Origin: an uncultured cyanobacterium
GTDB taxonomy: Bacteria; Cyanobacteriota; Cyanobacteriia; Cyanobacteriales; CAWCAG01
DNA length: 64,000 nt
Assembly: GCA_963803805.1 (NCBI GenBank)
Contig: CAWDOD010000002.1
Span: forward strand, 1,056,001-1,120,000
Direction: 5' to 3'
Part shown: positions 36,873 to 40,177 of the stretch, piece by piece
Layout: each line of letters starts with the position of its first letter
How positions within the stretch are numbered: the first letter of the stretch is position 1
Translations under genes and position numbers: made by a program
The notes under the pieces: generated by a model
Databases searched by the model: none
Told to the model about the DNA's origin: nothing
What the model saw: the letters and a program-made list of their open reading frames with translations, nothing else

Positions 36873-37682
36873 CTAGCTACCGAGGAATGCCACTAAAGGT
36901 TTGAATATGGGGAGCAATCTTTCTTGGGAAGATACCAAGGTGGGAAAAGGGCAACTGCCGTAATCTTCTCCCACTTTGAGGGGAAAAGCCGGTTCTGATT
37001 TTAAGGAAAGGAAAATACCTCCTGCGGCTTGGACAATAACCCAAACAGCAGCAATATCCCACACTTTAGGGGTCGCTTCTACACCTCCTAAAGCTGTGCC
37101 AGAAGCTACTAAAAGGCAATTATAACTAGCAACACCGATTAATCTTATTTTGCAAGGAAAAGGTTCTTTGAGAACGGCTGTACTGCGGGCGCAGAGGTTA
37201 AAGAGATGATTTTGACTGGGGGAATCTTGGCTAGTTTTGATTAGTTCACCATTTTTGTAAGCCCCTGTTGGACCACTTAAGCCTGATTCTCCATACCAGT
37301 AGCCATGGAAAAACTGCTCAAATTCAGGGAAATAGACTGCTCCAAATAGAGGTGTTCCTTGATAAAGTAAGCCCAGGGAAATACCCCAGATAGGAATCCC
37401 TCGCGTAAAGTTAGTTGTACCGTCGATAGGATCTACAATCCAGCACCAGTCATTTTCTGGGAAGATATGGAGAGTTTCTTCTGTAAGAATGCCGTGTTCA
37501 GGAAAACGAGCCGCGATCGCTTTGCGAATTACTTCATCAGCCCATTGATCTGAGGCTGTAACTAATGTGCCATCAGCCTTACGGGTTGCTTGCACCTGGC
37601 CAAAATCCAACTTAAGCTGGCTACCAACTTCTTTGGTAATGGTACGAGTAAAATCTAAAATATCAATCCAAAAATCTTCCAT
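36873..37682 (-). CDS. Inositol monophosphatase family protein
   Basis: TEE, WIVDPIDGTTNF, KVWDIAA. Confidence 0.9.
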   Translation of the reverse strand: MEDFWIDILDFTRTITKEVGSQLKLDFGQVQATRKADGTLVTASDQWADEVIRKAIAARFPEHGILTEETLHIFPENDWCWIVDPIDGTTNFTRGIPIWGISLGLLYQGTPLFGAVYFPEFEQFFHGYWYGESGLSGPTGAYKNGELIKTSQDSPSQNHLFNLCARSTAVLKEPFPCKIRLIGVASYNCLLVASGTALGGVEATPKVWDIAAVWVIVQAAGGIFLSLKSEPAFPLKVGEDYGSCPFPTLVSSQERLLPIFKPLVAFLGS

Positions 37683-37866
37683 ACTCGATCCTTTTGTGAC
37701 TTGTGAAGTGGTGCGCGATTCTTTCTGAGGAGATGCTTCTCCCGAAGGAGGCGCTGCGCAAACGCTAACGCCAATAAGAATTTTATACCCATAATCTAAG
37801 GAAAAGAAAACAAGTCAATATCTGCTGGCTATAGAACTATTGGCAGAAATTTTAAGGTAAAATTTT

Positions 37867-37891
37867 ATACCCGACTAATTTGGTCGGGTAT
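37867..37891. promoter_or_regulatory. Rrf2-family (IscR type-1-like) operator palindrome
   Basis: ATACCCGAC-TAATTTG-GTCGGGTAT has perfect 9-bp arms and matches the IscR type-1 consensus ATASYYGACTRWWWYAGTCRRSTAT at 24/25 positions; 70 bp upstream of the thrC-like start. Confidence 0.7.
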
Positions 37892-37961
37892 GTTTGACGA
37901 GTATTGTGAGCTGTGTTACTGTTTGTGGAACATTGACAGAAACGAAGATTAGAGTAGAGCT

Positions 37962-39266
37962 ATGACCCAGGTTATCACCCGCGAAAAACAAAGCGATTCG
38001 GCCACTTTTACGAAGCTGGTTTCTAAGGAATCTGGCGCTGAGTATCCCCTCAAGGCACTCCATATTTGCGAAGAGTGCTTTGGTCCTTTAGAAGTTGCTT
38101 ACGACTATGACAAAATTCGTTCTCAAGTAAGCCGGGAAACTATCAAAGCTGGCCCCAACTCGATTTGGCGCTATCGTCCTTTTTTGCCTGTGGCTACGGA
38201 TAACTATATTGATGTTGGCACTGGCATGACTCCTTTGGTTGAATCCAACCGTTTAGCTCGTCGCTTGGGTCTGAAAAAACTCTATATCAAAAACGATGCT
38301 GTCAATATGCCCACCTTGAGTTTTAAGGATCGGGTTGTTTCTGTGGCTTTGAGTCGCGCCCGTGAATTGGGTTTCTCGACAGTTTCTTGTGCTAGTACAG
38401 GGAACTTGGCTAATTCTACTGCGGCGATCGCCGCCCATGCGGGTTTAGATTGTTGTGTCTTCATTCCTGCTGATTTGGAAGCAGGCAAAGTTTTAGGGAC
38501 TTTAGTTTATAGTCCTACGGTAATGGCTGTCGAAGGAAATTACGACCAAGTTAACCGCCTTTGTAGCGAAGTTGCCAATACCCACAAATGGGGTTTTGTT
38601 AACATTAATCTGCGTCCTTACTATTCTGAAGGGTCAAAAACCCTTGGTTTTGAAGTAGCAGAACAACTAGGATGGCAATTACCCGATCATATTGTTGCGC
38701 CTTTAGCTTCTGGTTCTCTCTATACCAAAATCTACAAAGGTTTCCAAGAATTTATCAAAACTGGTTTAGTTGAAGACAAAAAAGTACGCTTCAGTGGCGC
38801 ACAAGCAGAAGGTTGTTCCCCCATTGCTCAAGCCTTTAAAGAAGGAAGGGACTTCGTAACCCCAGTTAAGCCTAATACCATTGCTAAATCTATTGCTATT
38901 GGCAACCCTGCTGACGGTATTTACGCTTTGGATCTGGCTAGGAAAACCAACGGTAATATTGAGTCTGTTACTGACAAAGAAATTATTGATGGCATTAAGC
39001 TTTTAGCTGAAACCGAAGGAATATTTACTGAAACTGCTGGTGGCACAACCATAGCTGTTTTGAAGAAATTAGTAGAAGCAGGTAAAATCAACCCTGATGA
39101 AACCACCGTCGTTTACATTACTGGTAATGGTTTGAAGACCCAAGAAGCTGTACAAAACTATGTTGGCCAGCCTTTGACCATCGAACCCAAGTTAGAAAGC
39201 TTTGAGAGGGCTTTAGAAAGGGCGCAAACTTTAGAGCGCTTGGAATGGCAACAGGTTTCGGTTTAA
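37962..39266 (+). CDS. Threonine synthase-like PLP enzyme (paralogue linked to a sulfur carrier)
   Basis: PTLSFKDR PLP lysine, CASTGNLANS, EGSKTLGFE, IAIGNPADG, TGNGLK. Confidence 0.85.
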   Translation: MTQVITREKQSDSATFTKLVSKESGAEYPLKALHICEECFGPLEVAYDYDKIRSQVSRETIKAGPNSIWRYRPFLPVATDNYIDVGTGMTPLVESNRLARRLGLKKLYIKNDAVNMPTLSFKDRVVSVALSRARELGFSTVSCASTGNLANSTAAIAAHAGLDCCVFIPADLEAGKVLGTLVYSPTVMAVEGNYDQVNRLCSEVANTHKWGFVNINLRPYYSEGSKTLGFEVAEQLGWQLPDHIVAPLASGSLYTKIYKGFQEFIKTGLVEDKKVRFSGAQAEGCSPIAQAFKEGRDFVTPVKPNTIAKSIAIGNPADGIYALDLARKTNGNIESVTDKEIIDGIKLLAETEGIFTETAGGTTIAVLKKLVEAGKINPDETTVVYITGNGLKTQEAVQNYVGQPLTIEPKLESFERALERAQTLERLEWQQVSV

Positions 39267-39405
39267 ATAGAGGAATAACTGGCTGACGGGCAACCAATTT
39301 ATGACTATAATTTACCTTGCTACTTCGTTTACATAGCTTTTAAAGTAAAGAGAAAGCAGGTTGCCCTTAAAAAAAATTGATCATTGGTAATTAATAATTG
39401 AAACT

Positions 39406-39681
39406 ATGGCTATCAAGGTATTAATCCCCACTCCCTTACAAAAATTTACTAACTCTCAAGCAGTAATTGAAGGGGAAGGCAAAACTGTTAACGAATTAAT
39501 TGATTCATTAGAAAGTACTTGTCCTAGTATTAAAGGGCGTTTACGAGATGAAGAAGGTAAGCCTCGTCGCTTTTTGAATCTTTATGTAAATGACGAAGAT
39601 ATTCGTTTTTTAAAAGGTGCAGATACTCCTCTCAATGATGGAGATCAAGTTAGTATCGTTCCAGCAGTAGCTGGCGGTTGA
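39406..39681 (+). CDS. MoaD/ThiS/CysO-like ubiquitin-fold sulfur carrier protein
   Basis: [16 protein letters not shown]-terminal IVPAVAGG. Confidence 0.9.
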
Positions 39682-39733
39682 AGAATTCAGAATACGAAGG
39701 TAAATCATCGACAACTTAAACAACTTAAGGAAT

Positions 39734-40177
39734 ATGCCAGAAGAAACTGCCCCCCAAGAAAACAAAGCTAAAGCTGCTAAGGCCAAGAAAAAGAAACCCT
39801 CAGCAGTAGAAGATAAACCTTTTACAGAATTTATGGCCCAGGATTTTACCCCGGCTTTGCAGAAAGCTTTATCTGAAGAAGGTATTGAGGATGCTGAGTT
39901 GGATTTAGTGAAAGAAAAATTACCAATAGCTGGTGCAAATTCCGACGAACAATGTTGGCAGTTTATTGGTAAATGGGAAGGAGGAGAACGGCAGTTTAAT
40001 CTTTATTTTCTAGATGAAGATATTAAAGGTCAAAAAGGCTTTTCTTGCTCTACAAATGGGGCATCTCCTAGTACCATTGAGTCTTTTATGATTGATGAGC
40101 GTCGGGTTAATTTACCTTTGTTGGTGATGTATACAGTACAGCGTTTAAATGGGCAGAAGTGGTTGGCGAAAAATTAA
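39734..40177 (+). CDS. DUF2996 family protein
   Basis: EDKPFTEF, RQFNLYF, ESFMIDERR, QRLNGQKWL. Confidence 0.8.
   Translation: MPEETAPQENKAKAAKAKKKKPSAVEDKPFTEFMAQDFTPALQKALSEEGIEDAELDLVKEKLPIAGANSDEQCWQFIGKWEGGERQFNLYFLDEDIKGQKGFSCSTNGASPSTIESFMIDERRVNLPLLVMYTVQRLNGQKWLAKN

Follow-up and report, generated by a model that had tools for sequence, protein, structure and literature searches.

A conserved palindrome upstream of metM-metO-type genes in cyanobacteria and a cysteine-free Rrf2 protein as its candidate regulator

Genes and palindrome of the locus

We analyzed a 64,000-nt stretch of DNA (hereafter the window) from the genome of an uncultured cyanobacterium of the Cyanobacteriales (contig CAWDOD010000002.1). 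The locus of interest within it consists of a palindrome, a gene for an enzyme of the threonine synthase (ThrC) family and a gene for a small sulfur-carrier protein. The genome is 5.3 Mb in length and 97% complete, based on marker genes. The first-pass annotation had placed a 25-bp palindrome 70 bp upstream of a ThrC-like gene that is followed by a gene for a carrier ending in AVAGG, and all three features are present in this arrangement (Table 1). The palindrome, ATACCCGACTAATTTGGTCGGGTAT, has perfect 9-bp arms and a 7-nt A/T-rich spacer, and 70 nt separate its last base from the ATG of the enzyme gene. In a profile search, the enzyme scored above the cut-off of the thrC model TIGR00260 (338 bits), with a match to PF00291 as well, and the carrier matched the ThiS family (69.8 bits). 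The two genes, which we refer to as metM and metO after the Streptomyces genes discussed below, are separated by 139 nt.

Table 1. Features of the metM-metO locus, with positions in the window.
Feature	Position	Strand	Basis or description
Palindromic operator (predicted), 25 bp	37867..37891	.	ATACCCGAC-N7-GTCGGGTAT, IscR type-1 form
-35 hexamer TTGACG (predicted)	37894..37899	+	Starts 2 nt past the palindrome; cross-locus comparison
-10 hexamer TACTGT (predicted)	37917..37922	+	17 nt past the -35 box; cross-locus comparison
metM-type gene, ThrC-family pyridoxal phosphate (PLP) enzyme, 434 aa	37962..39266	+	TIGR00260, PF00291
metO-type gene, ThiS/MoaD-fold sulfur-carrier protein, 91 aa	39406..39681	+	PF02597, C-terminal AVAGG

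The palindrome had been said to fit the type-1 consensus of IscR, an Rrf2-family regulator, and it matches the consensus for E. coli, ATASYYGACTRWWWYAGTCRRSTAT (PMC6599224), at 24 of 25 positions, with one mismatch. With up to three mismatches allowed, it is the sole match to this consensus in the window (100 shuffles gave none) and also in the entire genome, where the reversed control pattern gave 0 matches. A genome-wide scan had been suggested, and its outcome is a unique site: with a symmetrised weight matrix made from the related sites, only the palindrome scored above 8 bits (37.7 of a possible 40.8 bits). A matrix of the arms only gave 34.3 bits for the palindrome. The runner-up in the genome scored 13.2 bits, and the reversed-genome control up to 27.9 bits. 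Scoring by arms only is noisy: at C4:321649-321673 of the window's own genome, G000, the reversed form of this matrix reaches 27.9 bits by chance. No second genome site rises above this noise, and weak ones are possible.

We compared 95 metM loci, namely the window and 94 related loci (the 80 closest, which span Nostoc, Microcystis, Microcoleus, Leptolyngbyaceae and others, and 14 further ones). Sites with conserved arms lie upstream of metM in 93 of these, so the palindrome recurs in orthologous promoters, where it had been proposed to look for it. At 79 of the 80 closest loci the site has the form AWWCCCGAY-N7-RTCGGGTAT and ends 54-137 nt (median 72 nt) before the aligned start. No palindrome was found in the 213 nt of upstream sequence that are available at locus L010.

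The distribution of the site was also determined in a sample of 401 genomes from across the phylum, the window's own genome included. One family in this sample, f26, comprises 29 small genomes (1.6-3.0 Mb) that are picocyanobacterium-like. The pattern CCCGAYW7RTCGGG, with at most one mismatch, is present in nearly all cyanobacterial families other than f26 (e.g., 25/25 genomes in f3, 44/45 in f6 and 19/20 in f7) and in 1 of the 29 f26 genomes. All seven metM loci of f26 nevertheless keep the arms; these sites were missed by the W7 pattern because their spacers are GC-rich. Among the zero-mismatch matches listed, 25 of 26 lie just upstream of the gene for MetM, the exception being G312:C61. A variant palindrome, ACAGAC-N7-GTCTGT, in which both arms are altered symmetrically, was identified upstream of metM at locus L104 (genome G053).

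The enzyme-carrier pair and the candidate source of homocysteine

MetM of the window shares 84-89% identity with 80 cyanobacterial orthologues (85-88% for the Microcystis loci L080 and L086). Several genes that the first-pass annotation had recommended looking for were identified elsewhere in the genome. A second, canonical thrC-family gene is present on another contig (335 bits, 367 aa), and its product shares only 34% identity with MetM. A ThiF+rhodanese protein of 391 aa, of the MoeB/MoeZ type, and a Prok-JAB (JAMM) peptidase of 152 aa are also encoded. Homoserine kinase ThrB (297 bits), MetH (1596 bits) and an ordinary CysK were identified as well. Not found in the genome were MetE, a MetA/HTS homoserine O-acyltransferase and Cys_Met_Meta_PP enzymes (only five partial matches of 22-29 bits for the latter), and MetX is limited to a 22-bit fragment. 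Since MetH is present and needs homocysteine, and no MetA, MetX or Cys_Met_Meta_PP enzyme was found, metM-metO is the only candidate source of homocysteine found in this genome.

The association of the two genes is widely conserved. A carrier gene lies 3' of metM on the same strand at 91 of the 95 loci, and 89 of these 91 carriers end in A[VIQ]AGG. Two of the four loci with no carrier match have less than 200 nt of downstream sequence.

The available text of GapMind (2026), citing Hasebe et al. (2024), describes a pathway in Streptomyces albulus, backed by experiment, in which MetO, MoeZ, Mec and MetM (UniProt A0A059WBP2) convert O-phosphohomoserine to homocysteine. The first-pass annotation had referred to a ThrC-like enzyme and carrier of Streptomyces acting on O-phosphohomoserine; this is the MetM/MetO pair of Hasebe et al. 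(2024), as that study is cited elsewhere. The idea of the pathway was right, but it is not new, as the pathway was already published for Streptomyces in 2024. The locus resembles that of S. albulus in that a ThrC-like PLP enzyme lies beside a ThiS-fold carrier. The genome likewise encodes a MoeZ-type E1 and a Mec-type JAMM protein (their role for MetO is putative), and O-phosphohomoserine is available via ThrB. Unlike MetO of S. albulus, the carrier of the window already ends in GG. The combination of a PLP enzyme and a ThiS-fold carrier, predicted here to be thiocarboxylated, is also similar to CysM/CysO/Mec of M. tuberculosis. In contrast to CysM, however, the window enzyme belongs to the ThrC family and its predicted product is homocysteine rather than cysteine, the ordinary CysK being present.

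By analogy with the Streptomyces work, we predict that the window enzyme is a MetM-type homocysteine synthase. It would take O-phosphohomoserine made by ThrB and use the C-terminal thiocarboxylate of the MetO-type carrier as sulfur donor, the carrier being charged by the MoeZ-like E1/rhodanese protein encoded elsewhere. The homocysteine produced would then be methylated by MetH to methionine. The available part of a 2020 review of Synechocystis metabolism lists MetA, MetB and MetC as missing and the steps before MetH as undetermined. Homocysteine synthesis is an acknowledged gap in cyanobacteria by that account, and the MetM/MetO route would fill it.

MetM orthologues (E at most 1e-100) were identified in 156 of the 401 genomes. 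They are present in 148/148 genomes of families f2-f25 and f27-f33, in 7/29 of f26 and in 0/223 of f34-f43. Genes for Cys_Met_Meta_PP enzymes (E at most 1e-30) were surveyed in 62 genomes, i.e., all 29 of f26 and 33 picked across the other families. All 22 f26 genomes that lack MetM carry three such genes, whereas six of the seven with MetM carry none and the seventh (G142) carries one. Among the 33 genomes from other families, such genes are absent from 22 and present in 11. The complementary pattern is as expected from non-orthologous replacement of the homocysteine step. Gene content and distribution both support a MetM/MetO function in cyanobacteria, although in the only biochemical study the enzyme was interpreted as a threonine synthase/deaminase.

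That study deserves consideration. In the text available of Kim et al. (2025), the M. aeruginosa orthologue is reported to be 51.6% identical to S. albulus MetM and its neighbouring gene 47% to metO, so that cyanobacterial homologues of MetM/MetO have already been noted in print. The Microcystis enzyme is reported to show both threonine synthase and threonine deaminase activity in vitro, in assays without a thiocarboxylated carrier, and was read as moonlighting (Kim et al., 2025, same text). The enzyme may on this basis be mainly a threonine synthase and deaminase, with the carrier serving something else. These activities count against homocysteine synthesis, as do loci L106 and L107, where no metO was found within 1.5 kb downstream, and the score above the TIGR00260 cut-off also suits a threonine enzyme. 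Nevertheless, the genome has a separate canonical thrC, a GG-ended carrier adjoins the gene almost throughout the loci compared, and no other route to homocysteine was found although MetH is present. The distribution in f26 is complementary to that of Cys_Met_Meta_PP, and MetM is frequently misannotated as threonine synthase, according to the available GapMind text (2026). We consider a primarily threonine-related role to be quite improbable.

Residues 21-40 of MetM (38022-38081) correspond to an N-terminal CxxC...CxxC zinc-ribbon motif that 17 of 24 aligned orthologues have kept in full. The window protein has SKES...CEEC at this position, and six others, one from a Microcystis locus, have SKEG...CEET. 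Thus, two or three of the four cysteines of the ribbon have been lost in this subgroup.

Position of the palindrome relative to the predicted promoter

Promoter boxes follow the palindrome at a fixed distance. At 84 of the 93 sites the sequence TTGAC follows the palindrome, starting 2 nt past it in 82 loci and 3 nt past it in two. All 84 of these loci have a TAnnnT hexamer beyond the -35 box, at 17 nt in 71 and at 18 nt in 13. At the nine sites without the TTGAC spacing, TAnnnT starts 25 nt past the palindrome, i.e., at the same offset. Seven f26 loci (L108-L114) have no -35 consensus, and an extended -10 element, CTGnTAnnnT, is found there at the same distance from the palindrome. A simple promoter scan of the window did not list the conserved metM promoter, whose -10 hexamer has only 3/6 matches.

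The fixed offset of the boxes places the palindrome upstream of the start of transcription. The start is predicted to be near 37929-37930, giving a 5' untranslated region (5'UTR) of about 32 nt, with the palindrome predicted to span about -62 to -38. The available part of Kopf et al. (2014) gives a mapped 5'UTR of 28 nt for Synechocystis sll1688, which fits the length implied for metM of the window, and transcription-unit figures that imply a gene of 1302 nt, the length of MetM. The Synechocystis data thus support the predicted start by analogy. The mapped transcription unit in the same source consists of that gene alone, with a 3'UTR of 138 nt. The carrier gene may have its own promoter in some species. 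In the window, the gap between metM and metO includes a promoter-like sequence at 39283-39311 (CTGACG, 17 nt, TATAAT; 10/12 matches).

A palindrome in this position might also act as an RNA hairpin of the 5' leader, serving in attenuation, in transcript processing or in a riboswitch-like manner. The hairpin would be stable if transcribed (the fold of the region has z = -3.2), and the symmetric change of both arms at L104 could be taken as compensation. However, the conserved -35 and -10 boxes are downstream of the palindrome, and the 28-nt 5'UTR mapped in Synechocystis is too short to include sites that end 54-137 nt before the start (79 loci). The pattern of sequence change also differs from that of a stem. 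Of the 70 distinct sites, just 28 are paired throughout the 6-bp core. At pair 9/17 of the arms, the uncompensated combination C.A (10 sites) is as common as T.G (12), and the compensated T.A occurs once; at arm pair 4/22, there are 19 non-Watson-Crick combinations versus one compensated A.T. It is the sequence of the half-sites that is conserved, not base pairing. Because changes in the arms are mostly uncompensated, we conclude that the palindrome works as a DNA operator and not as an RNA stem. An Rfam scan of 37600-39800 found no family match, and a role as a leader hairpin is very improbable. In this respect the locus differs from metM of Streptomyces, for which an S-adenosylmethionine (SAM) riboswitch is reported in the available text of Kim et al. 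(2025): here there is no riboswitch match, and a DNA palindrome is found instead.

Candidate regulator and proposed mode of control

We identified one Rrf2-family gene in the genome, on another contig (L005, 1447-1887, minus strand). It encodes a protein of 147 aa with 0 cysteines and a PF02082 winged-helix domain (119.5 bits). The protein reaches only the superfamily model, falling below the equivalog cut-offs for IscR (TIGR02010, 102.9 versus 207.55) and CymR (NF047409, 90.6 versus 195). Its closest solved relatives are IscR of Thermincola potens (4CIC, 9e-29) and of E. coli (4HF0, 4HF1 and 4HF2, about 1e-22), and the match to CymR of B. subtilis (2Y75) has an E-value of 8e-19. Residue numbering is the same as in E. 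coli IscR throughout the DNA-binding domain. In the E. coli protein, contacts with bases and the groove are made by E43, Q44, S40 and R59. Among 27 Rrf2 orthologues, E43 and K44 (Q44 in IscR) are invariant and R59 is nearly invariant. The iron-sulfur cluster of IscR is held by Cys92, Cys98, Cys104 and His107 (PMC6599224). No conserved cysteine was found among the 27 orthologues, and therefore the usual cysteine ligands of the cluster are absent from the protein.

Full-length Rrf2 orthologues (E at most 5e-36, at least 48% identity) are present in every cyanobacterial genome sampled outside f26. Within f26, an Rrf2 match (E at most 1e-5) was identified in 7 of the 29 genomes, which are exactly the seven that encode MetM. 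These f26 proteins have 34-43% identity and share the C-terminal motif DLRSWQ with the orthologues, and they are distinct from a second group of Rrf2 paralogues. In the lineage with the variant palindrome (L104, genome G053), the Rrf2 orthologue (L120) has SPALLEKLL in its recognition helix, versus PAPYLEKLL elsewhere; this is a single case.

Because there is one regulator gene, one site, and a matching consensus that was derived independently, the Rrf2 protein is the best candidate and, judging from these sequence comparisons, most likely the protein that would bind the palindrome. In addition to the conserved palindrome sequence, the resemblance to IscR of E. coli and P. aeruginosa includes the winged helix, E43 and R59, and the position of the site relative to the -35 box, which is near that of type-1 sites that repress. 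Unlike IscR, the protein lacks the cysteine ligands and would act on a methionine-pathway operon rather than on isc or suf, from a single site in the genome. Overall, we think it reasonably probable that metM-metO is a homocysteine operon and that the palindrome is the DNA operator of the cysteine-free, IscR-like Rrf2 protein.

Several points weigh against this combined account, and some of them would be explained if the operator were bound by a different regulator. The phyletic agreement between Rrf2 and MetM, a pattern common to many genes, is confounded by phylogeny and may go back to no more than one or two events in evolution. E. coli apo-IscR is weaker on type-1 sites than the cluster form (PMC6599224), which is needed for good binding; a protein that keeps E43 without the cluster cysteines leaves type-1-like reading unexplained, although a signal may act there. 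No palindrome was found upstream of the 26 Rrf2 genes searched, so there is no link through autoregulation. The Rrf2 protein of Synechocystis is given as 'IscR', uncharacterized, in the available part of one review. The sole experimental study of that protein, by Midorikawa et al. (2009), is reportedly concerned, from its title, with psaAB expression and not with methionine. For the organism itself, binding of the Rrf2 protein to the palindrome, expression and enzyme activity are all deduced from sequence. A regulator other than the Rrf2 protein is nonetheless distinctly unlikely, given the 24/25 match to an Rrf2-type consensus of independent derivation, the occurrence of one Rrf2 gene and one site in the genome, the relationship to IscR with E43 invariant and R59 nearly so, and the coincidence of the lone variant operator with a variant recognition helix.

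If the Rrf2 protein is the regulator, a dimer would sit on the palindrome, abutting the -35 box of a sigma-70-type promoter (TTGACG, 17 nt, TACTGT) from which metM-metO, its sole apparent target, would be transcribed. Occlusion of the -35/UP region would lead to repression, with relief when methionine is short. Alternatively, the protein may be an activator at about -50 that recruits RNA polymerase. The strict conservation of a 2-nt gap before the -35 box (82 of 84 loci) would also suit an activator, as does the distance to the -10 element that is kept in the seven f26 loci where the -35 consensus has been lost, and this too counts against repression. We favor repression as the more likely mode, because the promoter looks competent unaided (TTGAC, 17-18 nt, TAnnnT, or the extended -10 TGnTAnnnT of f26) and similarly placed type-1 sites of P. 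aeruginosa IscR repress (nfuA, -59 to -34; iscR site A, -67 to -43; PMC6599224). Activation seems to us somewhat unlikely.

The signal that would relieve repression appears to be tied to methionine supply. In Microcystis given threonine, ThrC is up 10.5-fold and the neighbouring gene 6.8-fold, and methionine reverted the thrC induction, according to the available text of Kim et al. (2025), which reports no SAM riboswitch there. The threonine induction of these orthologues and its reversal by methionine suggest a methionine-linked signal. The first-pass annotation had described the gene product as a sulfur-regulated, carrier-dependent synthase. Gene content agrees with the dependence on a carrier, but sulfur regulation in the manner of CymR is at most putative, and the one expression dataset, as far as its available text goes, points to methionine.

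CymR of B. subtilis and S. aureus is a useful comparison, since the protein studied here would likewise control sulfur amino acid metabolism as an Rrf2 regulator without a cluster. It is unlike CymR in scoring below the CymR cut-off, and CymR acts in complex with CysK. CymR also controls a regulon of many genes. We tentatively put forward the possibility that the cysteine-free Rrf2 protein is a dedicated methionine-pathway regulator of cyanobacteria and not an Fe-S regulator, with one operator in a fixed geometry throughout the class. It might read type-1-like sites without a cluster and sense a methionine-pathway metabolite or a partner via an SF[VI][VI] tail.

The C-terminal tail of the Rrf2 orthologues (L005, L115-L120 and L143-L162) has the form GE(E/A)TSF[VI][VI], and at least 90% have F145. 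Proteins of the f26 type end in GGL[ML][LV]G, and the second paralogue group in M[YF][YF]I. Mimicry by the tail of the CysK-binding tail of serine acetyltransferase was considered and dropped, as CysE of this genome ends in ...GTGIAKR, not in Ile. A predicted complex of MetM and the Rrf2 protein, modeled with the idea of a co-regulator in mind, scored 0.00; the prediction was made without controls and counts neither way.

The enzymology proposed here is ordinary, and what may be new is the operator together with the cluster-free, IscR-like Rrf2 protein proposed to bind it. No link between Rrf2 and thrC, metM or sll1688 in cyanobacteria was found in the searchable literature, although regulon databases such as RegPrecise could hold the motif. 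The operator offers a testable answer to how cyanobacteria, lacking the SAM riboswitch that is reported to precede metM in Streptomyces, control the pathway. If this reading is correct, it would provide a function for an Rrf2 protein found throughout cyanobacteria, and the protein would be, after CymR, the second cluster-free Rrf2 regulator of sulfur amino acid metabolism, with DNA specificity of the IscR type. The promoter and operator would also make a compact, well-defined pair for strain engineering.

Other genes near metM-metO and near the Rrf2 gene were also identified. Downstream of the Rrf2 gene by 38 nt, on the same strand, is cbiB (L005, 402-1406, minus strand), for adenosylcobinamide-phosphate synthase (285 bits). 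Among 26 other loci, of which 20 had flanks of only 350 nt, nine have a CbiB-like match adjoining the Rrf2 gene. MetH is B12-dependent. Downstream of metO, at 39734-40177, is a gene for a DUF2996 protein (PF11210, 189 bits) that is present in only 18 of the 95 loci, and it is therefore not a conserved member of the operon. The gene upstream of metM (36873-37682, minus strand) is divergent and encodes a HisN/CysQ-like protein of the inositol monophosphatase family, which scores below all equivalog cut-offs; among the 95 loci, a gene of this family adjoins metM in the window only.

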